Positions 23,725 through 49,237 of a stretch of DNA of 49,237 nucleotides are shown one piece after another. The stretch is from a bacterium (GTDB lineage Bacteria; CG03), in assembly GCA_013791675.1 (NCBI GenBank), contig VMTI01000208.1, positions 1-49,237 of the forward strand, in the 5' to 3' direction. How positions within the stretch are numbered: position 1 is the stretch's first letter; each line of letters starts with the position of its first letter. A program made the translations under genes and the position numbers. The notes beneath the pieces are model-generated. The model was not told where the DNA came from and searched no databases. It saw only the letters and a list, made by a program, of their open reading frames with translations.

Positions 23725-23891
23725 AATCCCCTCCAAAAAAGTATATTATCATTATTTTTTTCGATAGGCAAATGCGTGCGACGTTGTTTACTACTTTAAT
23801 GTCGATTTAACTATTCATTTCAAGAGATAAAGCGGGAATTGTTGGTCTGCTGCAAAGTTAGACCAATAGGCCATAAACCAATGTCGAATGT

Positions 23892-23920
23892 TTGTCGCGA
23901 TATTTAAAAAATAGTATACT
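23892..23920 (+). promoter_or_regulatory. sigma70-like promoter candidate (TTGTCG-17 nt-TATACT) in the 309-nt divergent intergenic region
   Basis: -35 at 23892-23897, -10 at 23915-23920, 17-nt spacer. Upstream of a 30-codon ORF and the 24046 gene. Confidence 0.4.
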
Positions 23921-24045
23921 ACAATTTTGAGGAAATAGATGTTTTATGGGGATTTAAGAAATTATCCTGCAAGGATGATTATGTTTTTCAGTTTGGCTAA
24001 GTTAATTTTGTTGTTTTCCAAGCCATATTAAGATAGGGGGAAGAA

Positions 24046-25827
24046 ATGAGAACAGTTATGTTCGTCAACCATAAAGAAAAAAATTGCGGGGTATACCAGT
24101 ATGGTCGCATTATTGGCGATATTCTCACGAAATCTCAAAAATATCAGTTTGTTTATGCAGAATGCTCGAATAATGATGATTTAAAAGCTAAAATTCAAAA
24201 ATATTATCCGCAAGCAATTATTTATAATTATCATCCTTCGACGTTGGGATGGTTATCTAAGGTAACTAAAACAATAAATATTCCTCAAATAGGTATGATA
24301 CATGAAATTACGCAAGACGTTGCAGATAGGGCGGATAAAACTTTATTTGACTATCATATAGCGCCAGACCCCACTTTGCTTTTGAGAAATCCAATTGTAT
24401 TCAAAACAGGCCGCCCGATACCACAGTATGACAATAATGTTTTACCGCCTACAAATTTGACTATTGGATCTTTTGGTTTCGGGCATAAAACGAAGGGTTT
24501 TCATAAAATCGTTGAACTTGTACAGCAAGAATTTGACTTAGCATTGATTAGATTACAGATTACAACGCCTCATGGAAATTCAATTAGTGGAGAACAAGAG
24601 TATGAACGTATTGTGAATGAATGTAAGAGCAAGATATACAAAAAAGGGATAACTATAGAAACGAGTAATGAATTTTTAGAACCACAGGGGTTACTGGATT
24701 TTTTAGCAGGGAATACCGTGAATGTTTTTTTATATGATGACCAGCAAAATCGGGGCTTATCAAGTGTTATAGATTATGCTCTTGCTGTGAGAAGAACTAT
24801 AGCAATTTCAAACAGCAGTATGTTTAGGCATCTTTTTCCAGCGAATCCTTCAATTTGTATTTCACACAACTCGCTCTCAAATATTATTGCAAATGGAATA
24901 GAGCCACTTAAAAAATATTATAGTGAATGGTCAAATGCTAACTTGATATGGGAATATGAAAGGATTGTAGATACCGTGTCCAGAGATTTTATCCCTGTAA
25001 AACGGAGAAAACTAAATATATTTGAAAGGGTAATAAATAAGCACTATAAGGCACGTTTTGGGAAACGATTAATTAAAGTACCGAAATATGCATATAAAGT
25101 CAGCTGGAATGCTACAAGCACATACCATGCGATTGAATTTAATAATCAAAGTGGCAAAATGTTGCAACAATATATGCCGGTAAAAGGAATTAATAATTTC
25201 AATATTATTCTAGATGATGTTGCTAGACGAACATATGACGTGGCAGTTCGGCTACTAGGAGAATTATGCCCGGATCTAATTAAACGAAAAATGCCCCGCG
25301 CAAATATTCAGCAGGGGTTTGTTTTAGATACTGTTTATCGTTTTGCAAAGGAATTGCATAACCCAAAAATTTTATGTGTAGGCTGTTACGAGGATACGGC
25401 TGCCTATGCTCTTGCAAAGTTGGGGATTAATTTTGACGCAATTGACCCCATGATTAACTTTAATTTACAAGATTTTTTAGATAGACCGACAACTCTTAAG
25501 GGGCATTACGATATTATTTTTTCTACATCTGTCATTGAGCATGTGGATGATGATGAGCAGTTTGTTAAGGATATAGCGGTATTATTAAATTCAAATGGAG
25601 TTGCGGTGTTGACATGTGATTTCCAGGATACTTATAAATTGGGAGATGAGATACCCGAAGTCTGCGAGCGTTTTTATACAAAATATGACTTAGAGAATAG
25701 GTTGATGAATGTTATGCCGTACTGTAAATTGATTGGAAAACCAAATTGGGATTGTGATAACTATGATTTTGTCTTTGATAAATATCGCTATACTTTTGCT
25801 ACGTTTGTATTTAGAAAAGCAATGTGA
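24046..25827 (+). CDS. fusion protein: GT-B-like glycosyltransferase N-terminal part plus class I SAM methyltransferase C-terminal domain
   Basis: 593 aa, very AT-rich. LTIGSFGFGHKTKGFHKIVELV and SSVIDYALAVRRTIAIS resemble a GT4 C-terminal Rossmann half. C-terminus has ILCVGCYEDTAAYALAKLG (motif I-like), IIFSTSVIEHVDDD, NGVAVLT. Confidence 0.6.
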   Translation: MRTVMFVNHKEKNCGVYQYGRIIGDILTKSQKYQFVYAECSNNDDLKAKIQKYYPQAIIYNYHPSTLGWLSKVTKTINIPQIGMIHEITQDVADRADKTLFDYHIAPDPTLLLRNPIVFKTGRPIPQYDNNVLPPTNLTIGSFGFGHKTKGFHKIVELVQQEFDLALIRLQITTPHGNSISGEQEYERIVNECKSKIYKKGITIETSNEFLEPQGLLDFLAGNTVNVFLYDDQQNRGLSSVIDYALAVRRTIAISNSSMFRHLFPANPSICISHNSLSNIIANGIEPLKKYYSEWSNANLIWEYERIVDTVSRDFIPVKRRKLNIFERVINKHYKARFGKRLIKVPKYAYKVSWNATSTYHAIEFNNQSGKMLQQYMPVKGINNFNIILDDVARRTYDVAVRLLGELCPDLIKRKMPRANIQQGFVLDTVYRFAKELHNPKILCVGCYEDTAAYALAKLGINFDAIDPMINFNLQDFLDRPTTLKGHYDIIFSTSVIEHVDDDEQFVKDIAVLLNSNGVAVLTCDFQDTYKLGDEIPEVCERFYTKYDLENRLMNVMPYCKLIGKPNWDCDNYDFVFDKYRYTFATFVFRKAM

Positions 25828-25833
25828 TTTTAC

Positions 25834-27048
25834 ATGATAATTGTTTGTGAACCCGAATGCAGAGGAACCGCCCACGAGAAGATCAACAGCGCTTTTCTTT
25901 ACGGGGTGAGTCTGGCTTATCCGGAAGAGAAAATTGTCTTCTTTGCGGAAGAAAATCATATCGCGGCCATGAAAGATAATTTTACGCGTGATAAAATCAG
26001 CTTAAAAAACATAGAATACAGACACTTCTTATTGCCGGAACCCCCGTATGAGCGGATTGCCGCGTATTTTCAATATTATTCGCTGTTAAAAAGGATTTTT
26101 GGTTATGCCGGAGATTCCGGCTGTTGTAAAATGTTCTTTCTTTCCGCTAATTCAAATAACCTTTATTGCATAAAAAAAATATTGACCCGTTACCATCAGG
26201 ATATAAAGTGCGGGGTCGTGATGCATGGTATTGTAGAGACAATAAAGATTAAACCCAAATTTACCGATAGATTGAAAATATGGCCTTACATCATGTGGTT
26301 TAAAAACGCGCTGGAGTATCGGAGCGATCTTGCTGTGAATTATCTTATGCTGTCAAAGAGGGCGTACGCGAATCTGGCGGCATATATAGACGGGAATCTT
26401 TACCGGAAGTTCTTCTATATGGATATTCCCTACATTTTTGATCAGGAGTATGTGAAAGAACTTGATCCGAAACGGCTGATTGTTGCCACCATCGGACACG
26501 GCAATCCAAACAGATTGATCGATTTTGTAAATCTTTTAAGGAACAAGTTGGGCGGTTTGGCCGAAAAAAACTTTGAGATAAGGGTTATAAGCGACAGCAC
26601 GAAAAGGATAGAAAAAAAACTGAAAGATGAGACGGCCGTCAATTGCGTGTCTCCCAGGAAGAGGCTCACAAGAGATGAGATGGATTTTCATTCAAAGGAC
26701 GTGGATTATTTCCTTTTTTTGTATGACCGGGACAGTTATGAACTGACTTCTTCCGGGGCTTTTTTTGACGCGCTGCACTACAAAACACCGATAATAACAT
26801 TGAGGAATCCGGGTATTCAGTATTATAATGATCTTTGCGGCGATATAGGTTATACGCGCGATACCATTGATGAATTGGCGGATATTCTTGTGAAATTGAT
26901 AAATCAGGGGAATGAAAAAGAGAAATATGATAACTTTGTCAAAAACATCGAAACTCTGAAGGAAACAATATCAATAGAAAAATCGTTTCACAAACTCAGG
27001 CAGTTAATGGAAATTGAAAGCGGAAATGTTTCTACGGAGAAAGGATAA
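25834..27048 (+). CDS. uncharacterised protein, weakly GT-B-like
   Basis: 404 aa. Coding is clear (long ORF, 6 nt after the previous stop). LIVATIGHGNPNRL...FEIRVISD...TSSGAFFDALHYKTPIITL resembles a glycosyltransferase C-terminal Rossmann half. No firm family. Confidence 0.45.
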   Translation: MIIVCEPECRGTAHEKINSAFLYGVSLAYPEEKIVFFAEENHIAAMKDNFTRDKISLKNIEYRHFLLPEPPYERIAAYFQYYSLLKRIFGYAGDSGCCKMFFLSANSNNLYCIKKILTRYHQDIKCGVVMHGIVETIKIKPKFTDRLKIWPYIMWFKNALEYRSDLAVNYLMLSKRAYANLAAYIDGNLYRKFFYMDIPYIFDQEYVKELDPKRLIVATIGHGNPNRLIDFVNLLRNKLGGLAEKNFEIRVISDSTKRIEKKLKDETAVNCVSPRKRLTRDEMDFHSKDVDYFLFLYDRDSYELTSSGAFFDALHYKTPIITLRNPGIQYYNDLCGDIGYTRDTIDELADILVKLINQGNEKEKYDNFVKNIETLKETISIEKSFHKLRQLMEIESGNVSTEKG

Positions 27049-29065: not shown

Positions 29066-29146
29066 TTTGATCCGGAAAGTAATAAAAAAATATGATTATC
29101 GGACATGAAATTTGAAATACGGGGAAAGTTTGCTAAAATTAAAACT

Positions 29147-30013
29147 ATGAAAGGAATCATTCTTGCAGGCGGGCGGGCAACAAGGCTTTATCCTGTGACA
29201 AAAGCCGTGTGCAAGCAGCTTCTCCCGGTGTACGATAAGCCGATGATCTATTACCCGCTGTCCGTTCTGATGCTGGCGGGCATAGATGAGATACTGATCA
29301 TCTCAAGCCCGGGGGAATTGCCGAATTTCAGGCAAGTGCTGGGGGACGGCTCTCAATTCGGTATCAAACTCAGCTTTGCCGCGCAGGAGGAGCCGAGGGG
29401 ACTGGCCGACGCTTTTATCATAGGGGAATCTTTTATAGGGCGCGACAGCGTGTGCCTGATCCTGGGCGATAACATCTTCTTCGGCAGGGGGTTCAGCGAA
29501 TTGCTCGAATCGGCGGTATCTCTGAAAAAGGGGGCAAAGGTCTTCGCTTATTATGTCAAAGATCCCTCGCGTTACGGTGTCGCCGAATTTGACAAAAACA
29601 AAAAGGTCATATCGATAGAGGAAAAACCCTCAAAAGCTAAATCAAATTACGCGGTGACGGGACTTTATTTCTACGATAACGATGTCATAAATATAGCGAA
29701 ATCGCTCAAACCTTCCAAGCGCGGTGAGATAGAGATAACGGATGTGAATAAGGAATATTTGAAGAGGGGTCTTTTGAGCGTTGAGCTCCTAGGACGCGGT
29801 TTCGCATGGCTTGATACGGGTACGCACGATTCTCTTCTTGACGCGGCGCTCTATGTGCGCACTGTGGAGGAGAGGCAGTTTCTCAAGATCGGATGCGTCG
29901 AGGAGATAGCTTTCAGAAAGGGTTTTATAAGCAAAGAACAGCTTCTGAAACTTGCCGGCGAAAACAAAACGGATTATGGAAACTATCTCGCTTTCGTGGC
30001 GGAAGAAAAATGA
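29147..30013 (+). CDS. rfbA: glucose-1-phosphate thymidylyltransferase
   Basis: [44 protein letters not shown]. Start trimmed to ATG 29147. ATG 29105 is an alternative. Confidence 0.92.
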
Positions 30014-30996
30014 GATACAGGAAACTTCTTGTCACCGGCGGCGCCGGATTCATAGGGAGCGAGTTTGTCAGACAGAATGCCGGGAAATACAGAATAGCGG
30101 TTGTTGATAAACTCACATACGCGGGCGACATTAAGCGCCTGGCGGAAGTCGCGGGTAAATACTCTTTTTACAAAACGGATATTTGCGACTCGCGTAAAAT
30201 AGAAGCTGTTTTCAAAAAAGAAAAACCCGACGCTGTTGCCCATTTTGCCGCGGAAAGTCACGTTGACCGGAGCATTGACGACGCCTCGGTTTTTATGACG
30301 ACCAATGTCATAGGCACGCAGGTGCTGCTGGACGCGGCTAAAAAGCATAAGGTAAAAAGATTCCTGCATGTGTCCACCGACGAGGTTTATGGGGATATTA
30401 TCAAAGGAACATTCAGCGAGAATTCGCCTTTTTCACCGAACTCCCCTTACGCGGTGAGCAAGGCCGCCGCGGATATGCTCGTGTCCGCCTATCACAGGAC
30501 TTACGGACTGCCGGTTGTGATAATGAGGGCGAGCAATAATTACGGTCCCTGGCAGTTCCCGGAAAAACTTATTCCCGTTATAATAATGAACGCGCTCAAA
30601 AATAAAAGGGTGCCGGTTTACGCCAAAGGCCTGAACGTGCGGGAGTGGCTGTATGTCACGGATTGCGCGAAAGCGGTCGCCGCTATTCTTGAAAAGGGCG
30701 ACGACGGCCAGGCCTACAATGTCGGGAGCGGCATGGAGAAAAAAAATATTGATGTGGTCAGGGGCATTCTTGACGCGCTCGGAAAGCCGGATCGGCTCAT
30801 AGAGTTTGTGAAAGACAGGCCCGGCCACGATATAAGATATGCGCTGTCCGTCGCAAAAATAAGGCAAAAGCTCCGCTGGAAGGCGGGGACGGCCTTCGCC
30901 GAGGGGCTGAAAAAAACCGTTGACTGGTATGTAAAAAACACAAAGTGGACAGCGCGCGTTCTGACGGAAGAAAAAAAGACGGGGAGATCAAAATGA
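30010..30996 (+). CDS. rfbB: dTDP-glucose 4,6-dehydratase
   Basis: [26 protein letters not shown] (YxxxK), [11 protein letters not shown] 30010 overlaps the rfbA stop (ATGA). The track start 29893 lies inside rfbA. Confidence 0.92.
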
Positions 30997-33594: not shown

Positions 33595-34164
33595 ATGATA
33601 AAAGTGGTTTTAGTGTTATGCGCTGTGTTTTTAAATTCATGCGCGGGGACGAGCTATATAACGCCGGACACGGTGACAAAGTATGATTCAAAATTCAGCG
33701 ATACCGACCTGAAAATGATGTCGTCTTACATGGCGGAATCACTGAAAAATTCGGATGTTATTAAGGGTGCGGAAAAAAAGGCGCTGGGTATTCTGCATAT
33801 TAAAAACAAAACCAGCGAGCACATAAACAGCGACGGCATCGCGGATAAACTTATGGTCAATCTTCTGAAAACCGGTAAAGTCAAATTTGCCGACAGGGAG
33901 AACCTGAAAGAGCTCATAGAGGAACAGCGTTTGAGCGCCCTGGGTATGGTGGACGAGTCTAAGGCGAAGGAAATCGGAAAGCTTTATGGTATAGATTATT
34001 TTTTATCGGGTTTCATAGAATCAATTGAGAAGAGGTCATCACGGAGTGAATTGACATATTACCGTCTGAGTTTGAAACTCACGGATGTTGAGACGGGTGA
34101 GATTGTGTGGGCGGATGAAATGGAGCTTAAAAAAAAGAGCAGTACTCATATAATGGACTGGTGA
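33595..34164 (+). CDS. LpoB-like (penicillin-binding-protein activator family) lipoprotein
   Basis: Lipobox FLNSC. ILHIKNKTSEH, GKVKFADRENL, GIDYFLSGFIESI, YYRLSLKLTDVETGEIVWADE - colinear with E. coli LpoB as I recall it. Confidence 0.7.
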   Translation: MIKVVLVLCAVFLNSCAGTSYITPDTVTKYDSKFSDTDLKMMSSYMAESLKNSDVIKGAEKKALGILHIKNKTSEHINSDGIADKLMVNLLKTGKVKFADRENLKELIEEQRLSALGMVDESKAKEIGKLYGIDYFLSGFIESIEKRSSRSELTYYRLSLKLTDVETGEIVWADEMELKKKSSTHIMDW

Positions 34165-34174
34165 AAATAAAAAA

Positions 34175-35326
34175 ATGCGCACAGCAGAAGAGAAATTAAA
34201 AATTCGCGGCGCCAAGGTTTTTGTCTGTCTGGCAGGTCTTGTTTTCCTCGGCTCGTGCGGCGGTCCGCTCCAATATACAAAAAACGGCGATTTGCATTAT
34301 TCGCGGGGAGAATATGAGCGGGCTGCGGCGGAATACAGGAAAAATATCAAATATTATGAGAGCATAAATTATCCGCTTTATATGCTGAATCTCGCCGTGG
34401 CCAATTACAGGGCGGGTTTGTTGGATGAGTCTGAAAGAGCATTTTTGACGGCTTTGAAACTTTCGCGCGGCGAGAATTTGAGCGCGCTTGAGAAAAATTT
34501 CGGTTTTCTCGCGCCGAAGTCGGAGGAAAGTTATCGTCTCAGGAATTATGAGGAAGTCATGGCGCATTTTTATCTTGCTCTGATATATGTCAGGACGAAC
34601 AAACTGGATAAGGCAATAGTGGAATTTAAAAAGATAAATCTCATTGATCCTGAATATCCGCTCATGCGTTATATTATGGGGAAAAGTTATCAGCTTGACG
34701 GTAAGACGGAGGAAGCGGAAATAGAATTTCGTCTGACTAACAGATACAGAAAAGAATTTCCATACTCATATTTTGACAGGATTGAATTTTACGAGAGAAG
34801 CGGCATGAGCGGGGAAGCCGCGGGAGCGCTGAAAAAATATCTTGCGGCGGACGGCGGAAGCAGGCTCGCTGAAAAAGTGTCGGAAAGAGCTTTTGATTTT
34901 AGCGGGAGTGGCGAGTTAATAGTGCTTCTGGAACCGGAAAACCATGTTGAAAAGATTAAGAAAAAAAACAGAGGCTCATATTTTTATAAGATTTATATTG
35001 ACGGGGAATATTACGGCAAGTCGCACATCATAGAGGATATAGATTTGCAGAAGACGAAAAAACGAATAAGTAAAATGTTAAAAAGCGCGCTGAAGGATGC
35101 GGCGCGGTCAATGATTATAGAAAAAGTGTTTGGCGGCACGGCTTCGGATAATGTTGAGAGAAGGGAATGGGAAAAGATTCCGGGAATTGTACACATATTT
35201 AAAACGCATTTACCGACGGGCAGTTACAAGATGAAAGCGGTTCTTTATTTTAAGGAAATTGAAATCAGCGAAGCGGAAAGAACCGTTGAAATAAAGGAAA
35301 GCGGAGTTAGATTTGTGTCGTTTTAA
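34175..35326 (+). CDS. TPR-repeat lipoprotein
   Basis: Lipobox FLGSC. TPR-like helices (YERAAAEYRKNIKY, AHFYLALIYVRTNKLDKAIVEFKK), followed by a C-terminal non-TPR domain. Confidence 0.65.
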   Translation: MRTAEEKLKIRGAKVFVCLAGLVFLGSCGGPLQYTKNGDLHYSRGEYERAAAEYRKNIKYYESINYPLYMLNLAVANYRAGLLDESERAFLTALKLSRGENLSALEKNFGFLAPKSEESYRLRNYEEVMAHFYLALIYVRTNKLDKAIVEFKKINLIDPEYPLMRYIMGKSYQLDGKTEEAEIEFRLTNRYRKEFPYSYFDRIEFYERSGMSGEAAGALKKYLAADGGSRLAEKVSERAFDFSGSGELIVLLEPENHVEKIKKKNRGSYFYKIYIDGEYYGKSHIIEDIDLQKTKKRISKMLKSALKDAARSMIIEKVFGGTASDNVERREWEKIPGIVHIFKTHLPTGSYKMKAVLYFKEIEISEAERTVEIKESGVRFVSF

Positions 35327-35358
35327 AGCGCGCGGGTTTTAATAACCGAGGGGGGAAA

Positions 35359-36273
35359 ATGAAAAAAATGTTTTGTTATTGTGCGGCGGCCATTATTTTG
35401 ACAATTGGCCATGGTATTTTCGCTTATGAAGCGGAAGCCGAATCAAGTGTTGTCACGACAGATTCTGTTATCTGGCAGCAGACGAGTGTGGATACGATAG
35501 AGCCGACGCCGGATGCGGAAGAAACCGCGGTGGCGGAGGGTGTGGAAATGGGGATGCATATGATTATTGCGGACAAGACGAAAGTCGTTATTATTCCTCT
35601 TTCATATATTCTGCCGATAGATGTGATCGGCGGGAAGCTCTCACTCGGAGCCGGAATTCCATGGATACAGAAAACCAGCGCGGTAGATGAAACCAAATCA
35701 GGATTAGGGGATATTTCCCTTAAAGCCACGCATGACTACGGCGACGAAGTGTATTTCAGGAGAATATTTTCGGTTATCGTGAAACTGCCCACAGGGGATG
35801 AAGCCGCAAAATTCTCCGACGGTTCCTCCGCTCCTTTGGGAAAAGGGAGTCTTGATTACGCTTTCGCTTTTTCAGGAATCAGAAGGATGGGCACTTTCCG
35901 GCTTATAGGAAACGCGGGCTACAGATTTAACGGAGAATTTAAGGACACTGTCAATAATTTAACGAAAAAGTATGGCAATGTTATGAATCTGCTTGCGGGA
36001 ACGGAGTATAAGCTGAATTCACAGTTGTTTCCCTTTGTTTATGTGAGAATGGTTGAAACAGGTGAGTCGGAAACGGTATGGACGGGATGGTTATCGAAAA
36101 ATCAGGATGATGTAAAGGCAATAGACCTTATTACCGGCGCTAGATATAAAGTTCTTGGAAGTATCAGTTTAAGCGGCGCTTTGGAATTTCCTGTTTCCAG
36201 AAAATATCACGCCGGCGTCGTGGAGCCGCCGAACAAGGTCACCCTGACTTTGAAAGCGAATTATAAATTTTAG
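35359..36273 (+). CDS. outer-membrane beta-barrel protein (MetA-pathway/transporter-like family)
   Basis: Signal peptide ending FAYEAEA, alternating beta-strand pattern, SGLGDISLK motif, C-terminal aromatic residue (..ANYKF). Confidence 0.6.
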   Translation: MKKMFCYCAAAIILTIGHGIFAYEAEAESSVVTTDSVIWQQTSVDTIEPTPDAEETAVAEGVEMGMHMIIADKTKVVIIPLSYILPIDVIGGKLSLGAGIPWIQKTSAVDETKSGLGDISLKATHDYGDEVYFRRIFSVIVKLPTGDEAAKFSDGSSAPLGKGSLDYAFAFSGIRRMGTFRLIGNAGYRFNGEFKDTVNNLTKKYGNVMNLLAGTEYKLNSQLFPFVYVRMVETGESETVWTGWLSKNQDDVKAIDLITGARYKVLGSISLSGALEFPVSRKYHAGVVEPPNKVTLTLKANYKF

Positions 36274-40991: not shown

Positions 40992-42065
40992 TTATTTGAT
41001 CTTGTCGTATATGCCGGAAAGGGCTATTCTTTTATCCGTCATTTCTCTGTTATCAGCGTACATCAGAAATATATCTTCCCCTTTTCCGTCAAAACCGTAT
41101 AGTTCGCCGGCCCCGTCGGCAATGAGGCGAGACGGCACCAGCTTTTTCATTTCTGTGTTATAAAGGCGGTAGTCGGTTTCAACGCGGGTGTGAGAAATAT
41201 CGGCGGGCATGTGTATGGCGATGAGCCATTTGCTGTCAGCGCTGACATCCACGATCTGGAAAATTGATTTCGGATCGCGCACCAGCGTCTCTGTCCTGCC
41301 GTTTTTATCGGTCATCAGTATGGCGTTCTGGGATTCGTCCACATAGATTTTCGTCTGTTTTTCCCCGGGCGATTTGATTATGCCGATTTTTTTCTCAAAA
41401 GAGATGGCGCTCAGGCAGGTGTCGTCATATTTGTCGCCGTGGTAAACGCTGAGTATTTTGATCCGGAGGATGAACACCGCCCTCGGTTCCTGTTTCACGC
41501 CAGCGAGTTTTTCGCGGTTGATCTTTTTAAATTGCCTCGACGCCGAGTTTTTGAAACGCGCGAGCGCTTTCCATTTGAAAGGGAAATTTATTTTCTGCGG
41601 CCTTGATGAATCCTCAAGGGTGATCGTTTTCGTTTTTTTGTATGGCAGAGCGTTAAAGAGCACGCCTGTTTCCGTTACTTCGCCGGTAATGTGTATACCC
41701 GCGAGAATACTGAGCTCAGCCTGTTTGATCCTGTTGTTATCTTTGAATATTTTGTCGCTTTTAGCGTAGCCGTTCTGTATGACGATGATTTTTGTTCCTT
41801 CATCGATAGCAATGCTGACGCTTTCGCCAAGACCGTCGTCTTTGGCGCCTTCCGACCAGCAGGTCGCGGAATTGCCGTCAAAAAGATTGTGCGCGCCGTA
41901 GAGCCCGCGGACATAAGCGCCCCTGTTTTCCAGTTCGGAACTTGAAAAATAAAGATGCTCATAGCCGTCCCGCAGAATAATTTCTTCCCAGAGGTTTTTT
42001 TGAGGCGATGAGCATGCCGCGATAAAAGAAATTGTCACAGCCAGATATTTGACCGTTTTGTTCAT
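40992..42065 (-). CDS. lipoprotein with N-terminal discoidin/NADase-type glycan-binding-like domain
   Basis: Lipobox IAACS. NLFDGNSATCWSEGAKDDGLGESVSI, IQNGYAKS, NNRIKQAEL, YHGDKYDDTCLSAISF match the F5/8-type-C-like sensor domain pattern. The C-terminal half is uncharacterised. Confidence 0.55.
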   Translation of the reverse strand: MNKTVKYLAVTISFIAACSSPQKNLWEEIILRDGYEHLYFSSSELENRGAYVRGLYGAHNLFDGNSATCWSEGAKDDGLGESVSIAIDEGTKIIVIQNGYAKSDKIFKDNNRIKQAELSILAGIHITGEVTETGVLFNALPYKKTKTITLEDSSRPQKINFPFKWKALARFKNSASRQFKKINREKLAGVKQEPRAVFILRIKILSVYHGDKYDDTCLSAISFEKKIGIIKSPGEKQTKIYVDESQNAILMTDKNGRTETLVRDPKSIFQIVDVSADSKWLIAIHMPADISHTRVETDYRLYNTEMKKLVPSRLIADGAGELYGFDGKGEDIFLMYADNREMTDKRIALSGIYDKIK

Positions 42066-42207: not shown

Positions 42208-43071
42208 ATGGATCAGTATGAAATGCAGGCGAAATTCGGAAAAGGCATAGGTTTTTTTGTGATGTTATTCATAGTTTTTGTCATTTTGATGAAGAGTCTT
42301 GTCGTCGTGCAGCCCGGCACGGTAGGTGTCAGGGTGCTTTTCGGCAAAGTCAATCCGAAAACCCTCAAAAGCGGTCTTCACCTCATCAATCCTCTTGTCA
42401 ATGTGGTGAAGATGAGCGTCAGGACGGAAGAATACACCATGAGCATCGCCTCGGCAGAAGGTTACAAGAGCGGAGACGACGCGATTGATGCCCTCACATC
42501 CGAAGGCATGAAGATCAGGCTGGATCTGACGGCCTGGTACCGTCTTGACGAGGCCAAGGCCGCCCAGGTGTATGAAACGATAGGAACCAATTACGAATCA
42601 AAAATAGTGCGCCCGGTGCTCAGAACCGCCATCAGGGATGCCGTGGTAAAATACACCGCCGCCTCTATTTACACGGAAAAAAGAGCCCAGCTCGTCAGCG
42701 ACATAGAAAGAATAATGGCAGAACTGCTTAAAGACAGGGGCATCATTTCCGAAAAAATACTGCTGAGGAATCTCATACTTCCCAAGCGCCTCATGGAAGC
42801 CATTGACATCAAACTCTCCGCCGAGCAGGCCGCGCAGCAGATGGAATTTGTTGTGATGAAAGAGAGGAAAGAGAAGGAAAGAAAAATCGTGGAAGCGGAA
42901 GGCATCAGACGAGCGAATCAGATTATATCTTCCGGCCTCACGGACAAATACATCAAGTGGTACAGGATTGATATGATGAAGCAGCTCGTGGATTCTCCGA
43001 ACAACACAATAATATTCATTCCCGAGGACATGAGCTCCACGCCCATAATCAATATACCAGCCCAGAAATAA
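42208..43071 (+). CDS. SPFH/band-7 (prohibitin/HflC-like) membrane protein
   Basis: ATG 42208 is 5 nt after GGGAGG. N-terminal TM, VVVQPGTVGVRVLFGKV, PVLRTAIRDAV, coiled-coil EQAAQQMEF..EKERK. Confidence 0.88.
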   Translation: MDQYEMQAKFGKGIGFFVMLFIVFVILMKSLVVVQPGTVGVRVLFGKVNPKTLKSGLHLINPLVNVVKMSVRTEEYTMSIASAEGYKSGDDAIDALTSEGMKIRLDLTAWYRLDEAKAAQVYETIGTNYESKIVRPVLRTAIRDAVVKYTAASIYTEKRAQLVSDIERIMAELLKDRGIISEKILLRNLILPKRLMEAIDIKLSAEQAAQQMEFVVMKERKEKERKIVEAEGIRRANQIISSGLTDKYIKWYRIDMMKQLVDSPNNTIIFIPEDMSSTPIINIPAQK

Positions 43072-43075
43072 ACTA

Positions 43076-43594
43076 ATGAGCGAAGGCCCAAGCTTTCACG
43101 CCCGCCGTGTAACGGCTATTTTGTGGGCAGTAACTCTTGCCGCCATACCCGTGACTTCCTATTTCGGCCGGATCTGGCAGCGTTTGCTGACAGGCGCAAT
43201 CGGCAGAACGGGAATCGGCTGGCTGATGGCGGCTGTGGTGGCGGTGGTGCTCGTGGCGGCGGCGGTTGGCCTTGCGCGCAAAGCGGGCTGGACGGGCCTG
43301 TTCCATCTTATGTGGATGATTCTGCTCGCCGGAGCTTTGATGTATCTGCTGCGAAGACATCCCGAGCGCTGGCTGCATATACCGCTGTTCGGCATGCTGG
43401 GTTTTCTGTCCGTCAGCCTTTTTTCCAGAACCGGCGCTGAAATAGCTCTCGCGGTCGCTTTTCTGGATGAACTCTTTCAGTATTACCACCCTGAACGGGT
43501 CGGAGATTTCGCGGATGTCGTTGTTAACGCCGTATGCGCTTCAGCGGGAATCATTCTCTTCCTTGTCCTTTCCAAATTGCCGAAAAAAGACTAA
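43076..43594 (+). CDS. VanZ-like membrane protein
   Basis: 172 aa, 4-5 TM helices, DELFQYYHPERVGDFADVVVNAVCASAG typical of the VanZ family. Confidence 0.6.
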   Translation: MSEGPSFHARRVTAILWAVTLAAIPVTSYFGRIWQRLLTGAIGRTGIGWLMAAVVAVVLVAAAVGLARKAGWTGLFHLMWMILLAGALMYLLRRHPERWLHIPLFGMLGFLSVSLFSRTGAEIALAVAFLDELFQYYHPERVGDFADVVVNAVCASAGIILFLVLSKLPKKD

Positions 43595-43626
43595 ATTTCC
43601 TTATCTGCCGACGTCAGCCGGCGCAT

Positions 43627-43658
43627 TTGACGCGAAACAGTTATTGTTTATACAATAA
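43627..43658 (+). promoter_or_regulatory. promoter candidate (TTGACG-16 nt-TATACA) overlapping the palindrome TTATTGT-ttat-ACAATAA
   Basis: -35 at 43627-43632, -10 at 43649-43654. Palindrome arms at 43641-43647 and 43652-43658, ending 5 nt before ATG 43664. Implies a very short leader. Confidence 0.3.
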
Positions 43659-43663
43659 AGGCC

Positions 43664-46600
43664 ATGCTCATGGAAAAGTTAAGACATAAACGCGGCGTCA
43701 TAGGCCGGCTGTTCCGGCCATTGGTCTCAATTTTAGTACTGTTCCCCATTCTTTCTCTGCTGCTTTGCTCCGCCCCCGCTTTTGCGGCTGATTTAATAAA
43801 TGAGAATTTTGATACTGCCGGATATTTCCCGCCGGCTGGTTGGGCAAGAAATAATGTGGCTATAACTACAAATACAACTTCTCCAAATAGTGCGCCGTAT
43901 CGTGTAACTGGTTTTGCCGGGGGCACAAGATATTTCTTTACCCCGCTACTTACAAATCCGGATAATCTAACTTTATATTTATTGGTCTCTAATACCGCTT
44001 CAATATTTGAGATTAGCGTAGGAACTTCTCAGGTTGTTAGCGGGGATTGGACAGTGGTATTTACAACCGGAGGGTTAACCAGTTGGGCACAGAACAGCGT
44101 CGATTTGTCCTCATATAATGACATCTATGTTAGATTTAGACGTTCTGCGGGTGCTAACTTCTTTTATATTGACGATGTTGTTGTTACAGCGAGGGAAACT
44201 ATCCCTCCCTGCGCGATATCAAATCTTACGGCGATTGCGGGGAGCAAAGCGGGGACGGTGCTGCTTAAATGGACAGCGCCCGGCGACGACGGCACAGGCA
44301 CGGCAAATGCTTCCGCTTATCTTGTTAAATACGCCACGAAATACATATCAACGGATGATTTTTACGCCCCCTGGGTTTCCACTTATACACAGAGCTGGAT
44401 ACCCGCCGCGTTCGGGGCCGAAGAAGGAACTACAGGCAATAGAGTTATAAGCAGTCTTGACCAGGGAACGACTTACTGGTTTGCAATTAAAACGAAAGAT
44501 GATTTAAATAATTGGTCGTCGTGGACTTCTTCCGGAACGGTGAGCTGGGTGAACACATCAAATTCTACGAGAACACTTATTGTGCCTCCGACACCGCCCG
44601 CGGCCATAAGCAATCTGACCGCTTTGACAGGGGACACAATTCAGGGAACAATAAAACTTCAATGGACAGCTCCCGGCGGCGATGGAACTAGCGGAGGAAA
44701 CGCCTCCGCGTATGAAGTGAAATACGCGACGAAATATATAGGGACGAACGATTATTACGCCAGCTGGGTCAGTACATATACACAGGACTGGATTCCCGCC
44801 GATGCAGGAACCGAAGAAGGAACATCGGGCAACAGGGTGATAAGCGGTTTGAATCCCGGCGCAATGTACTGGTTTGCCCTAAAGGCCCGCGACGAGGAAA
44901 TGGATTGGAGCGTGTGGACATCATCGGGGGATAATCCTTCGGTGAATGTTTTGAATTCAACGACGGCTTATTTGAACGAGCCGCCCTCGGCGGTAAGTAA
45001 TTTGACGGCGCTTTCCGAGGGATCCGGCCTGAGCGGCGAGATAACTCTTAAATGGACGGCGCCCGGCTCCGACGGCACGAATGGCACGGCCTCGGCGTAT
45101 GAATTGAAATACTCTACAAAATACATAAGCGCTGATGATTACGCCTCGTCATGGACAAATCTTTACGCGCAGAGTTGGACTCCGAACGCGGGCGGCTCTG
45201 AAGAATTGCATATACTCACCGGTTTTAAGGAGAGGACGACTTATTATTTCGCGGTTAAGACTTATGACGGCCACAGTTGGTCTGTGTGGCCCGGATCAAG
45301 CTCTGTCCCGAGTCCGTATATAAATCCGGATAGTTTTAATTTTACGACCTCATCCGCGCCCGCGCCTGTTGGTGACCTCTCATCGGGAACGGGCACAGGA
45401 GGGGGCTCTGTTATACTTTCCTGGACGGCTCCGGGGGATGACGGCACTCAGGGGGATTTAATTTCAGGGAGCAAGTTTCTTGTAAAATATTCGTCTTATC
45501 CCGCAAAAGATTGGGACGCGATGGATTACAGCTGGTATATATCGACGGTGACGGCGGCGGGCTCGTCAAACGCTTTTACGGTGACGGGGCTCATTGAGAG
45601 AGCGACTTATTATTTCTACATCAAGACCGCTGATGAAAGGCCTAACTGGTCGCCTCTTTCCAACAAGACGACGACCTGGGCGATGTTCACATATCCGCGG
45701 GGAGACCTCGTTATTGACGAGATAAGTTGGAAGATTTCTGAATCGGGGGATTCTTTAGTAGGAAATAAAAGATATGTAGAGATACAAAACAGAAGCACAT
45801 GGACAGTCGGCATTTCCCATTATTATGTGGGTACTGGCGGCGCCAGCGACGATATGCACTGGTCAAGCGGTGTGATACCTCCGGGTGGATTCTGGGTAAT
45901 AGTTGACGGTGCGGGAACCGATCAGAGTTTGGGAAACAGAATTTATACATTTGAGAATAATAGCGATTTAGGCACTTTATTTGATTTAGTCGCAACAGAT
46001 GATGTAATAGTAATATCAACAGCAAATACCGCGGGGCTGGGGCAGAATAAGGATAAGATTATTGATTTTGTGGCCTATACAGACGGCACGAATACACCCG
46101 TGGCAGAACCGATTGCGGATGTAAATGCCGCCATTGACGCGGGTCAATGGGATCTTTACGGAACGGGGGCGTCAAGTTGTGTGTGGGCGAGCAATGACAG
46201 TCAGCCGGGTGTTATAATCACGGAAGATTTTATACACAGGATACAATACGATGATATCGCAGGAAACTTGGCGACGCATTTTACAGTAACTTCTTATCCG
46301 TGTATAGGCGACACAATGGAATTTATACCGCCCGCCGCAGTTTCAAATCTCACTGCTTTGACCGGCGGTAACGGTCACGGCGGTGAAATAAAACTTGAGT
46401 GGACGGCGCCCGGCGACGACGGCACCGGAGGCGGCGATGCCGCCGCCTATCAGCTGAAATACGCTACAAGACAGATAGGCGCTGACGATTATGACGCGAG
46501 CTGGACAAATCTTTACGCCCAGAGCTGGACGCCCGTAACTTTTGGCACGGCGGAAAGCAGAATTCTTTCAATGCCCATAGAAGGCGCGACTTATTATTTT

Positions 46601-49237
46601 GCCATCAAAGCCCGTGACGGCGTCAACTGGGCGATCTGGCCCGGCACCTCGGCTATTATCAATTCTCAGAATTACAGCTACACAAGCTCATCCGCTCCGG
46701 CTCCGGTGAACGATCTTTTGGCAACGCAGGGCGATATAGAAGGTAAAATACTTCTCAGCTGGACAGCTCCGGGCGACGACGGCACAACTGGGGCGCTTGT
46801 TTCAGGAAGCCGTTTCCTTATAAGGTATTCCACAAAAGAGGCGCAGGTATGGGACGATATGGATTACAGTTTCAACATCAGCACGGCAGTCGCCGCCTTA
46901 ACGGAAAGCTCTCATGTTTTTACCGGTCTTGAAACCGGCGCCACTTATTATTTCTATATAAAAACCGCCGACGAAAGGCCGAACTGGTCGCCGCTTTCAA
47001 ATAAAACGACGGCCTGGGCTCAAGTTGCCGTTGACGGTTTATCAAACGGAATTCTCACCGACGGAGACCACGACTGGAGTTTTGAACAGGTGACATCAAA
47101 AGCGAAATGGACTTACAACGGCGGAACTGCCGCGGACTACGAATCAACCACTACTCCTTATGACAGAGAGCAATTGTTCAAATGGTCAACGCTGACAACT
47201 AATTGGTCGGGAAGAGAAATTGTGACAAATAATTTCATAAACGGTGTGCTGGCTAAATCGTCTAACACAGCAAGTGTGCGGTGGCGCTCAACATCCGGTA
47301 CTTTTGCCAATGCCCGTTTAAGAATTGTTGTTGAGTGGTATGATACGTCGTATAATCTTATATCAAAAAGCACAAGCACGGAATTTTCTCTCTCTACGCA
47401 AGATGACTGGTATCAGGCGACCTCCACATTTACGGCTCCGGTGGATTCTAAAAAAGCGAAGCTGAGATTTCAGGCTCTTTTTGTCGGCGGCGACGCAATT
47501 GTTTATCTGGATTCGGCTGGTTTCTGGACGGAAGGCGGCGACGAATACGCGCCTTGCCCCGTATCAAATCTGACCGCTTTAAGTCTGGGGACGGGGCTGG
47601 GGAGTCAGTTAACTCTTGAATGGACTGCCCCCGGCGCCGACGGAACTGGAACAGCCAATGTCACATCCTACGAAGTAAAATACGCCACGAAATATATATC
47701 TTCTTCTGATTTCGGCGCCGTCTGGACGAGCGTTTATCCGCAGAGCTGGACGCCCGTGACTTTCGGAACGAAGGAGAGCCGTCTGCTCACCGGCCTGGAC
47801 GAGGGAAGCACTTATTATTTTGCTGTTAAAGCGACGGAAGGAAATTACTGGAGCGCATGGCCGGGCACCTCCTCCGTCGTGAACAGTTTGAGTTTTAATT
47901 TTCCCACTTCGTCCGCTCCCGCAAAAGTAAATAACCTTTCGGCTTTAACGGGCCCGGTCGGCGGGTCTGTCAAACTCAACTGGACGTCGCCGGGCGATGA
48001 CGGCACGACGGGTTTTATATCGGGGCAGCTGCACATAAAATATTCTGCGACTGACGAGGCATGGGGTGCCATGCCGAACGAAATATTTATTTCAACGGAA
48101 GTGGCCGCCGTCACGGATTGTTCCTATACGGTTACGGGCCTAACCGAAGGCGTCACATATTATTTTTACATTAAGACGTCGGATGAGAAACCGAACTGGG
48201 CGGAAGAATCCAATAAAGCGTTTGCAGGGGCAGAGAGAACACCGCCGCCCGCGCCTAACGGACTTTTGTTTTATGATATTCACGACTGGAGTTTTGAGAA
48301 CTCCAGCAGCACCGCTAAATGGTCTTACACAACGACAAATGCCGAGTATGGCTCTGCCACCAAGCAGTATGACAGGAATAAATCCTTTAAGTGGGGAACG
48401 CTGACAACCTCGTGGGGAGGCCGCGAGATAGTGACGGATAATTTCATAGCCGGCCTTGTGAGCAATTCATCCCACACCGCAAGCATACAATGGATGACTT
48501 CATCCGTGGAATTCACGGAGCCCTCCGCAAGATTTATAGTCGAGTGGTACAACAGTTCAAACTCTCTCATATCAAAGAGCACCGGCACGGAATTTTCGCT
48601 TTCTTCAACAGGCGGCTGGCATTTGATGACATCCACTTTTACATCGCCTGCCGACACCAGAAAGGCGAAGCTGATGGTCCAGTCAAAGAAGATCACAACG
48701 AGTTCATCAACGTTTGTTTATTTTGACGCTGCCGGCTTCTGGGCGGGCGAATGGGATGAAGTGCCGCCCGGCGCAATCAGCAATCTCACGGCGCTTTCTC
48801 AGGGAACGAATCTCAGCGGCGATATCACCCTCAAATGGACGGCTCCCGGCTCCGACGGGACGGGCCGGGAAGATCTTTATGCCTACGAGGTGAAATACGC
48901 CACAAAATATATTTCGACTAACGACTATGACGCGAGCTGGACAAGCGTTTATTCACAGAACTGGACGCCCGCGAATTTCGGCAGCGGAGAAACTCACATA
49001 CTCACCGGCCTGGCCGAAGGAGCGACTTATTTCTTTGCCGTAAAGGGTTATGATGAGAGGAACTGGGGCGTGTGGCCTGGCACATCGTCAGCCGTAAACA
49101 GTTTGAGTTTTAAGTTAGCGTCGTCTTCCGCTCCTGCGGCGGTCAATGATTTGAACGCTGTAACGGGTGCGGCCGCGGGTGAGATAGATTTGTCGTGGAC
49201 AACGCCGGGCGACGACGGCACCACGGGAGATTTAATC
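43664..49237 (+). CDS. 5' part (at least 1,858 codons, no stop within window) of a secreted repeat-modular surface protein: signal peptide, jelly-roll-like N-domain, FN3-like modules, lamin-tail-like domain, CBM-like domains
   Basis: Not in the ORF track. In-frame TGA at 43628, first ATG at 43664. I checked every TAA/TAG/TGA string between 43664 and 49237 and none is in this phase. The window ends exactly in phase. N-terminus MLMEKLRHKRGVIGRLFRPLVSILVLFPILSLLLCSAPAFA/AD is a signal peptide. Ten W-T-[AST]-P-G-x-D-G-T modules. Confidence 0.92.
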   Translation, partial: MLMEKLRHKRGVIGRLFRPLVSILVLFPILSLLLCSAPAFAADLINENFDTAGYFPPAGWARNNVAITTNTTSPNSAPYRVTGFAGGTRYFFTPLLTNPDNLTLYLLVSNTASIFEISVGTSQVVSGDWTVVFTTGGLTSWAQNSVDLSSYNDIYVRFRRSAGANFFYIDDVVVTARETIPPCAISNLTAIAGSKAGTVLLKWTAPGDDGTGTANASAYLVKYATKYISTDDFYAPWVSTYTQSWIPAAFGAEEGTTGNRVISSLDQGTTYWFAIKTKDDLNNWSSWTSSGTVSWVNTSNSTRTLIVPPTPPAAISNLTALTGDTIQGTIKLQWTAPGGDGTSGGNASAYEVKYATKYIGTNDYYASWVSTYTQDWIPADAGTEEGTSGNRVISGLNPGAMYWFALKARDEEMDWSVWTSSGDNPSVNVLNSTTAYLNEPPSAVSNLTALSEGSGLSGEITLKWTAPGSDGTNGTASAYELKYSTKYISADDYASSWTNLYAQSWTPNAGGSEELHILTGFKERTTYYFAVKTYDGHSWSVWPGSSSVPSPYINPDSFNFTTSSAPAPVGDLSSGTGTGGGSVILSWTAPGDDGTQGDLISGSKFLVKYSSYPAKDWDAMDYSWYISTVTAAGSSNAFTVTGLIERATYYFYIKTADERPNWSPLSNKTTTWAMFTYPRGDLVIDEISWKISESGDSLVGNKRYVEIQNRSTWTVGISHYYVGTGGASDDMHWSSGVIPPGGFWVIVDGAGTDQSLGNRIYTFENNSDLGTLFDLVATDDVIVISTANTAGLGQNKDKIIDFVAYTDGTNTPVAEPIADVNAAIDAGQWDLYGTGASSCVWASNDSQPGVIITEDFIHRIQYDDIAGNLATHFTVTSYPCIGDTMEFIPPAAVSNLTALTGGNGHGGEIKLEWTAPGDDGTGGGDAAAYQLKYATRQIGADDYDASWTNLYAQSWTPVTFGTAESRILSMPIEGATYYFAIKARDGVNWAIWPGTSAIINSQNYSYTSSSAPAPVNDLLATQGDIEGKILLSWTAPGDDGTTGALVSGSRFLIRYSTKEAQVWDDMDYSFNISTAVAALTESSHVFTGLETGATYYFYIKTADERPNWSPLSNKTTAWAQVAVDGLSNGILTDGDHDWSFEQVTSKAKWTYNGGTAADYESTTTPYDREQLFKWSTLTTNWSGREIVTNNFINGVLAKSSNTASVRWRSTSGTFANARLRIVVEWYDTSYNLISKSTSTEFSLSTQDDWYQATSTFTAPVDSKKAKLRFQALFVGGDAIVYLDSAGFWTEGGDEYAPCPVSNLTALSLGTGLGSQLTLEWTAPGADGTGTANVTSYEVKYATKYISSSDFGAVWTSVYPQSWTPVTFGTKESRLLTGLDEGSTYYFAVKATEGNYWSAWPGTSSVVNSLSFNFPTSSAPAKVNNLSALTGPVGGSVKLNWTSPGDDGTTGFISGQLHIKYSATDEAWGAMPNEIFISTEVAAVTDCSYTVTGLTEGVTYYFYIKTSDEKPNWAEESNKAFAGAERTPPPAPNGLLFYDIHDWSFENSSSTAKWSYTTTNAEYGSATKQYDRNKSFKWGTLTTSWGGREIVTDNFIAGLVSNSSHTASIQWMTSSVEFTEPSARFIVEWYNSSNSLISKSTGTEFSLSSTGGWHLMTSTFTSPADTRKAKLMVQSKKITTSSSTFVYFDAAGFWAGEWDEVPPGAISNLTALSQGTNLSGDITLKWTAPGSDGTGREDLYAYEVKYATKYISTNDYDASWTSVYSQNWTPANFGSGETHILTGLAEGATYFFAVKGYDERNWGVWPGTSSAVNSLSFKLASSSAPAAVNDLNAVTGAAAGEIDLSWTTPGDDGTTGDLI
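44216..45700 (+). repeat. in-frame array of three A-type (~130 aa) and one B-type (~110 aa) FN3-like modules
   Basis: Equivalent I/V-S-N-L codons at 44216, 44606 and 44993 (spacing 390 and 387 nt). B-type V-G-D-L at 45368. Each has L.WTAPGxDGT ... Y.[VL]KY ... G.TY[YW]F hallmark strands. Confidence 0.8.
46340..49237 (+). repeat. ~1.2-kb in-frame tandem supermodule [A-type FN3 | B-type FN3 | CBM-like], 2.4 copies, truncated by the window end
   Basis: Equivalent codons: V/I-S-N-L at 46340/47561/48776, V-N-[DN]-L at 46706/47927/49142, H-D-W-S-F at 47069/48281. Periods are 1221 and 1215 nt. Confidence 0.85.

Follow-up and report, generated by a model that had tools for sequence, protein, structure and literature searches.

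The coding element described here lies at the 3' end of contig VMTI01000208.1 (assembly GCA_013791675.1), a stretch of 49,237 nucleotides (nt) that is referred to as a whole as the window. The plus-strand frame at 43664-49237 is the N-terminal 53% of a giant gene of about 3,536 codons, whose product would be a Sec-exported, cell-anchored, glycan-binding fibre of fibronectin type III (fn3) modules, sorted by means of a C-terminal tail domain and a beta-barrel protein encoded next to it. We regard this statement, taken as a whole, as rather probable. The identity and architecture of the gene by themselves can be accepted with high confidence; the sorting step through tail and barrel is evenly poised, and the evidence for this step comes from beyond the window and remains below the curated thresholds.

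The open frame and the full-length gene

Machine translation of 43628-49237 placed 1,869 sense codons without a stop behind the stop codon TGA 43628-43630. The first ATG, GTG or TTG past this TGA is ATG 43664, from which 1,858 codons run to base 49237 with 0 in-frame stops, against 101, 108, 64, 75 and 98 stops in the other five frames; by our own arithmetic, at about 3 stops per 64 codons, the chance of an open run this long is approximately e^-89. An earlier reading, made from the letters of the DNA without database searches (the sequence-only reading), had proposed this frame together with its nearest upstream in-frame stop at TGA 43628, and both were borne out by the translation. It had also explained the silence of the open reading frame (ORF) list by the omission of stop-less ORFs, which matches the lister's own description. 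The giant frame is missing because the lister drops ORFs that run off the window end, and the ORFs listed in the interval (44118-44450, 45711-46025 and 48325-48696) are short, off-frame or antisense. The frame and the promoter-type match in front of it are as follows.

43627-43656, plus strand: sigma-70-like promoter match by consensus, TTGACG-18 nt-TACAAT (10 of 12), ending 7 nt before ATG 43664
43664-49237, plus strand: open-ended coding frame of 1,858 codons, N-terminal 53% of a gene of ~3,536 codons, by translation and by identity to residues 1-1856 of the full-length protein P0130

The start at ATG 43664, from which the sequence-only reading had counted, was only partly upheld: it is the first possible start after the stop, but the spacing of the Shine-Dalgarno-like element and an independent gene call favour the in-frame ATG 43670. 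The sole such element, AAAGG at 43657-43661, stands 2 nt from ATG 43664 and 8 nt from ATG 43670, and in the JGI annotation the gene of the identical full-length protein begins at 43670, which is thus the more likely start. The sigma-70-like match would alternatively suit a near-leaderless ATG 43664; this is weak evidence, because two promoter-type sites were found where 1.1 were expected in shuffled sequences. The mature protein is the same with either start.

As the sequence-only reading had anticipated, the gene is much longer than its part in the window. The 90%-identity cluster of the window product has 11 members, among which P0130 (JGI/IMG; 3,534 amino acids (aa), encoded on a 63.5-kb contig) alone is not partial. 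P0130 and the window product do not differ in any of the 1,856 residues that they share, after which P0130 continues for 1,678 residues more to its stop, giving a whole gene of ~10.6 kb and a product of 3,534-3,536 aa depending on the start. Eight of the other ten members are exact substrings of P0130; P0121 and P0125 have the C-terminal end in common with it, but they are not exact substrings.

The protein already has a public-database entry as 'fibronectin type III domain-containing protein, partial', and a homologue search returned 179 proteins at E <= 1e-10, mostly longer than 1,000 aa and, where named, mostly from Elusimicrobiota. The gene had been described as the largest and least conventional coding element of the window. 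It is indeed the biggest gene there, but 'least conventional' is overstated because of these homologues. The protein is typical of a class that appears common in metagenome-assembled genomes (MAGs) of Elusimicrobiota, and its sole unusual aspect seems to be the type IX-like tail with the partner barrel.

Modules of the part inside the window

The repeats were segmented by motif positions and by a MAFFT alignment of the modules. The fn3 modules fall into a subtype A, with the signature PPxA[IV]SNLTA...WTAPGxDG, and a subtype B, with SSAPAPV...WTAPGDDG...YYFYIKT; they are interrupted by an LTD-like module and by two modules of another kind, termed X1 and X2, which resemble carbohydrate-binding modules (CBM). 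The order inside the window is given below, with the confidence of the AlphaFold2 (AF2) models as predicted local distance difference test (pLDDT) and predicted template-modelling (pTM) scores.

43664-43786, plus strand: predicted Sec-type signal peptide, cleavage A-F-A/A-D, no canonical lipobox (translation by inspection)
43790-44203, plus strand: N-terminal jelly-roll domain (N-domain), 135 aa, with cleaved-adhesin/MAM/CBM-like folds (AF2 model, pLDDT 70; Foldseek)
44201-44569 (A1), 44588-44965 (A2) and 44978-45337 (A3), plus strand: fn3 subtype A (Pfam fn3, motifs, alignment at 48-65% identity)
45341-45685, plus strand: fn3 subtype B, B1 (Pfam fn3, motif positions, module alignment)
45692-46324, plus strand: divergent LTD-like module of ~210 aa, twice the canonical length (sub-threshold Pfam LTD)
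46328-46678 (A4) and 46679-47023 (B2), plus strand: fn3 (Pfam fn3, motifs, module alignment)
47021-47545, plus strand: X1, CBM_4_9-like jelly-roll (AF2, pLDDT 76, pTM 0.77; Foldseek; profile relatives)
47546-47899 (A5, the best Pfam fn3 stretch) and 47900-48235 (B3), plus strand: fn3 (Pfam, motifs, alignment)
48239-48760, plus strand: X2, second CBM_4_9-like module, 51% identical to X1 (jackhmmer and alignment with X1)
48761-49114 (A6) and 49115-49237 (first 41 residues of B4, which the window end cuts), plus strand: fn3 (motifs, alignment)

By inspection, the N-terminus holds the classical signal peptide that had been noticed before, with a basic n-region (MEKLRHKRGVIGRLFRP), a Leu-rich core and the site A-F-A/A-D. 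A lipoprotein was considered as well and was ruled out, as LLLC is no canonical lipobox.

The fn3 assignment is far above its threshold: Pfam fn3 (PF00041) scored 129.2 bits against a cutoff of 25 in the window part, in 7 stretches, and 298.8 bits in the full protein, in 19 stretches. The jelly-roll modules were placed by fold and by their relatives. For the N-domain, Foldseek ranked the K2/K3 cleaved-adhesin domains of Lys-gingipain (Kgp) first, followed by CBM4 and meprin MAM, and a domain homologous to it gave a weak MAM match (E 0.005). Neither X1 nor X2 has a direct match to Pfam CBM_4_9 (PF02018), and close homologues of the X modules reach 22 bits against the cutoff of 25.9. With the X profile, 4,612 representative proteins are retrieved at E <= 1e-3; of ten relatives sampled among them, six match Pfam CBM_4_9 at the corresponding place, five with scores that exceed the cutoff (26.2-36.2 bits). 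Foldseek with the X1 model returned CBM4-2, CBM22, CBM16 and CBM61 (E 1e-6 to 1e-4, template-modelling (TM) scores 0.53-0.61), together with the sugar-binding domain of Fbs1 and those parts of phage tailspikes that bind carbohydrate. X1, as modelled, thus has the jelly-roll beta-sandwich fold of solved CBM4/9/22 structures.

The third type of insert is more remote. The region at 45692-46324 shows only weak similarity to regions of homologues that carry Pfam LTD, and jackhmmer started from it found no homologue at E < 1e-3; it is termed LTD-like rather than a member of LTD because its score is sub-threshold and its homologue matches are weak. The families suggested by the sequence-only reading have therefore proved right in the main, fn3 standing far above its cutoff, CBM_4_9 holding by fold and by transitive profile links, and LTD remaining sub-threshold. 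Its statement that the product consists of beta-sandwich modules with no enzymatic motif agrees with our Pfam and NCBIfam scans, in which no catalytic family was found in the window part or in the full protein. A phmmer search of the whole protein against PDB sequences gave no match.

Several known proteins resemble parts of this architecture. The N-domain, X1 and X2 have the jelly-roll folds of the gingipain/HagA cleaved-adhesin domains and of CBM4, CBM9 and CBM22, and relatives of X reach the CBM_4_9 cutoff, but identity to these domains is 9-20%, TM is ~0.5-0.6, and no catalytic domain is attached here. Subtypes A and B in the window part match positions 729-854 of TIGR00868, the C-terminal fn3 region of CLCA proteins, which are calcium-activated chloride channel regulators, at E 5.5e-28; however, the scores are 97-146 bits against a cutoff of 900.85. 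The giant protein is not a CLCA, since only this C-terminal fn3 region matches and there is no vWA or protease domain. Also similar are large fn3/LTD/CBM proteins of Elusimicrobiota MAGs, such as P0062 (CVU77_04030, Elusimicrobia bacterium HGW-Elusimicrobia-1, 3,001 aa) and P0060. They agree with the giant protein in the N-domain (jackhmmer E ~1e-61 to 1e-64), the X module and the fn3 subtypes with WTAPGDDG, and they too have a tail of the CHU_C/FlgD type and a homologous barrel downstream. Unlike the protein described here, in which both are sub-threshold, they carry clear Pfam LTD and CHU_C matches; the best local alignment shows ~35-45% identity over 14-17% of the query, and the order and number of modules differ.

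The C-terminal tail and the downstream barrel

Past the window, the modules of P0130 follow one another as C-C-A-B-A-B-C-C-A-B-C-C-C-C, where C is a classical fn3, and behind them stand a CarboxypepD_reg domain, which scores 34.7 bits where the cutoff is 32.3, and lastly a tail of 80 aa. The full protein has ~24 fn3 modules, about 16 of them past the window, and all of its jelly-roll modules are in the N-terminal half, which is the half inside the window. Of 119 homologues, 52 proved to have the tail domain in a jackhmmer search with the last 82 residues, and 47 of these 52 carry it no more than 2 residues from the C-terminus. Some tail homologues score above the Pfam thresholds of CHU_C, FlgD_ig or Por_Secre_tail. 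Among 30 homologous tails, 25 have a match at E <= 0.01 to the type A sorting-domain model TIGR04183 and 9 to the type B model TIGR04131. The tail profile also matches solved FlgD immunoglobulin-like (Ig) domains and type IX secretion system (T9SS) C-terminal domains (CTD), namely substrate chains 8glj_D and 8glk_D, the RgpB CTD 5hfs, PorZ and PorU. On these profile matches, the tail is classified as a C-terminal Ig-like domain of the FlgD-Ig/T9SS-CTD superfamily.

The next gene after the stop of the giant gene (L006 3845-5317; contig Ga0180009_10007354) encodes a signal-peptide protein whose first ~300 residues match PorV/PorQ NF033709 at E 3.5e-14 over nearly the whole model; its C-terminus consists of tetratricopeptide repeats (TPR) joined to the barrel by a Pro/Ala-rich linker. 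A 76%-identical ortholog of this barrel also matches PorP/SprF TIGR03519 (E 4.7e-6). Homologous barrels (phmmer E 1e-30 to 1e-56) are encoded immediately after fn3 giants that bear a CTD in L011, L012 and L014, and in L013 the barrel comes after two small inserted genes, so that, with the giant gene's own locus, the substrate-then-barrel order recurs in five distinct loci. The taxon label of L011 and L012 is Elusimicrobia/Elusimicrobiota, and L013 and L014 have none. The L014 barrel has a Pfam PorP_SprF match on record at E <= 1e-5; public databases list the barrels under no names but 'hypothetical' and 'tetratricopeptide repeat protein'.

Two side observations concern these loci. In L011 (17011-20559), L013 (15591-19576) and L014 (11932-16647), the genes stand in the order giant fn3-CTD gene, PorP/SprF-like barrel, SpoVG-like secreted protein and LTD/TP_1001_2nd protein, and in L006 an unrelated 205-aa secreted protein takes the place of the SpoVG-like gene. 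The weak TPR matches of the L006 barrel protein include the PorE model, and this protein could combine PorP-like and PorE-like roles in one polypeptide.

We propose the following mechanism. The giant protein would be exported by Sec, after which its C-terminal domain would direct passage through the outer membrane and retention there, and this retention would involve the PorV/PorP-SprF-like beta-barrel-TPR protein encoded immediately downstream. The C-terminus would then be held at the cell, and the fn3 stalk would hold the N-terminal glycan-binding modules away from it. With ~24 fn3 modules at roughly 3.5-4 nm each, we estimate that the stalk would measure ~100 nm if extended. The N-terminal modules would bind polysaccharide or the surface of another cell; the term adhesin is one that we infer from this architecture. 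A type I secretion system (T1SS)/RTX-type adhesin was also considered, and it was ruled out by the Sec signal peptide and by the lack of any RTX/T1SS-type family among the Pfam and NCBIfam matches.

The closest known precedent is the pair SprB/SprF of Flavobacterium johnsoniae, with other type B CTD/PorP-SprF pairs. In Bacteroidota, type B CTD substrates such as SprB need their cognate PorP/SprF-like barrel and stay bound to it, and this barrel is typically encoded directly downstream (PMC9143113, PMC12618676); for cognate pairs of F. johnsoniae, an ipTM above 0.8 is reported (PMC12618676). As in those systems, a giant, repetitive, non-enzymatic protein with a Sec signal peptide is found here (PMC9143113, PMC12618676), with an Ig-like sorting-type domain at its extreme C-terminus and the gene of a PorP/PorV-like barrel directly behind it. 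The differences are considerable. The host is from Elusimicrobiota instead of Bacteroidota, the scores of the tail lie nearer type A (TIGR04183) and FlgD_ig than type B, neither tail nor barrel reaches its curated cutoff, and the barrel has a C-terminal TPR extension. Moreover, the repeats are fn3 of the WTAPGDDG subtype instead of SprB repeats, and no T9SS core or gliding genes were seen in the available DNA.

A number of results weigh against tail/barrel sorting and the fibre reading built on it. Against TIGR04183, which has a cutoff of 23, the tail of the giant protein itself reaches 21.3 bits in isolation and 14-16 in context, and the downstream protein reaches 53 bits against the NF033709 cutoff of 90. 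PorV/PorQ-like barrels are part of a wider FadL/UPF0164-type family, and because of this the barrel gives no proof of a T9SS. Two of the sampled loci with CTD-bearing homologues, L015 and L016, have no barrel within 5 kb. Genes of the T9SS core (SprA/Sov, PorK-N) were found neither in the 49-kb window nor in the 7.4 kb downstream, the 49 kb plus 11 kb of this genome that the analysis covered contain no core gene (SprA/Sov, PorK/L/M/N or GldK-N, PorU), reviews confine T9SS to Bacteroidota and the Fibrobacteres-Chlorobi-Bacteroidetes (FCB) group (PMC11205867, PMC7463736), and our literature search found no paper describing a T9SS in Elusimicrobia/Elusimicrobiota. Among the modules, LTD (PF00932) matched window residues 678-805 at E 3.7e-4 with 21.3 bits, where the cutoff is 34.3, and the structure models are of moderate confidence, with pLDDT 70-76.

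Part of this evidence also fits another explanation, which we consider less likely but plausible, in which the same secreted multi-fn3 protein carries the tail as a structural FlgD-type module, leaves the cell by another route, such as a type II secretion system (T2SS) or release into the medium, and has an unrelated FadL-like transporter as its neighbour. The best PDB profile matches of the tail are indeed FlgD Ig domains, both tail and barrel are under the curated T9SS cutoffs, T9SS core genes were not seen in the available DNA and T9SS has not been described outside FCB (PMC11205867), and T2SSK-like genes occur near the paralogous locus L011. However, a purely structural module would have to account for a domain that is strictly terminal in 47 of 52 homologues and for a substrate-then-barrel order in five distinct loci, which is moreover the gene order documented for type B CTD/shuttle pairs (PMC12618676). 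We retain the Sec-exported, cell-anchored fibre sorted by tail and barrel. A wider idea, rather doubtful at present, is that Elusimicrobiota use a T9SS-like logic outside FCB for giant fn3 adhesins, with an Ig-like tail and a cognate, TPR-fused PorP/PorV-like barrel, through an undescribed translocon or a minimal, ancestral system.

Assembly, chromosomal setting and significance

The sequence-only reading had raised the concern that the repeats might be mis-assembled, and the more general explanation that a chimeric or collapsed repeat region imitates a single gene has to be weighed. All recovered contigs except that of P0130 break within the gene. A metagenome scan found the 3' end on L006 together with 75-78% orthologs (L007-L009), all truncated too, and a genome-contig scan found nothing but a distant Endomicrobiia fragment. 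The window itself ends in an exact repeat.

49170-49237, plus strand: exact-repeat end, formed by the final 68 nt of the window, to which the opening 68 nt of contig L006 are identical; L006 goes on as the second copy, ~419 aa deeper in the gene

The last 25 aa of the window are found twice in P0130, at positions 1831 and 2250, as an exact block ~419 residues apart, and the window and L006 end there because both stop inside this internal repeat. A naive end-join of the window to L006 would lose ~419 aa. In addition, the modules past the window end are 79-92% identical in the module alignment, and with the exact duplicate this means that the copy number in the 3' half, which rests on the one contig carrying P0130, could be wrong. 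Inside the window, the situation is different. The repeat copies within 43600-49237 are merely 60-85% identical in DNA (47-67% in protein between modules), and five contigs from five different samples or runs (L001-L005) have 0 mismatches to the window over their overlaps with the gene, the longest of 3,278 nt, which makes repeat mis-assembly unlikely there. Tandem Repeats Finder found no repeats in 43000-49237 because the modules are too diverged in DNA. The single 63.5-kb contig covers the entire gene, and ten of the eleven gene products of the cluster map onto it, eight of them as exact substrings of P0130, which is also against an artefact. An artefact is therefore refuted for the window part; it could concern only the module copy number in the 3' half, and as an explanation of the gene it is very improbable.

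Hardly credible at all is an S-layer or envelope-lattice protein, a label that the sequence-only reading had offered next to adhesin: the protein is large, secreted, repetitive and non-enzymatic, but Pfam and NCBIfam scans of the window part and the full protein found no SLH or other S-layer anchoring module, and strings of fn3 modules, of which there are ~24 here, with CBM-like inserts and a sorting tail are the layout of fibrillar adhesins.

The window consists of ordinary chromosomal DNA, and the giant gene is a single chromosomal gene of a groundwater bacterium from Elusimicrobiota. GatB of the window shares 96% identity with a protein from an 'Elusimicrobia bacterium HGW' MAG and 82% with proteins from other Elusimicrobiota MAGs, and we assign the host to Elusimicrobiota because of these identities. 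NCBI labels copies of the giant protein (P0125 = MBA3052619.1) and of the barrel (P0251) as 'Candidatus Omnitrophica/Omnitrophota'; this affiliation was rejected on GatB identity, and the label is probably a taxonomic mislabel or the result of mis-binning. The window also encodes HisRS, GatA, a histidine kinase, an SNF transporter, a HAD hydrolase, and Band-7 and VanZ proteins. No tRNA genes or Rfam families were found in the window, and no secretion-system genes adjoin the 5' end of the giant gene.

Some other loci of the window touch the cell envelope. A long glycosyltransferase (GT) cluster at 9757-32735 (GT1/GT4, GT9 heptosyltransferase) includes C-methyltransferases and enzymes of the GDP-mannose dehydratase, RmlA and RmlB types, and its guanine-plus-cytosine content is 0.35-0.38 in mid-cluster, with a minimum at ~23000-27000, against ~0.49 elsewhere. 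It resembles a lipopolysaccharide (LPS)/O-antigen island and was possibly acquired horizontally; the heptosyltransferase would be expected of an LPS-bearing cell with two membranes. Within this cluster, the nucleotidyl transferase ORF 29105-30013 and the dehydratase ORF 29893-30996 overlap by 121 nt on the same strand as listed, and the true start of the latter is probably further downstream. At 33595-36273, an LpoB/CsgG-like lipoprotein, a TPR protein and a 304-aa protein of unknown type are encoded in a row, in an order kept in L001 and L002, and may form a small envelope or secretion module. On the minus strand at 40992-42065, 1.6 kb upstream of the giant gene, a 357-aa protein carries an NADase-type discoidin glycan-binding domain (PF25302/NF047619) and is a putative second glycan-binding surface protein.

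For annotation, the biggest gene of the window is invisible to stop-to-stop ORF callers and is cut by an exact internal repeat, so that the annotation or binning of the contig under-reports it. For the biology of Elusimicrobiota, the gene adds one more very large fn3/CBM surface fibre to those of its class, and such fibres probably serve in groundwater to attach the bacteria to polysaccharide or other cells. The recurrent combination of a T9SS-type tail and a PorP/PorV-like barrel occurs in a phylum to which no T9SS is ascribed; if functional, it would matter for the question of where outer-membrane sorting by a CTD arose and how widely it is distributed.

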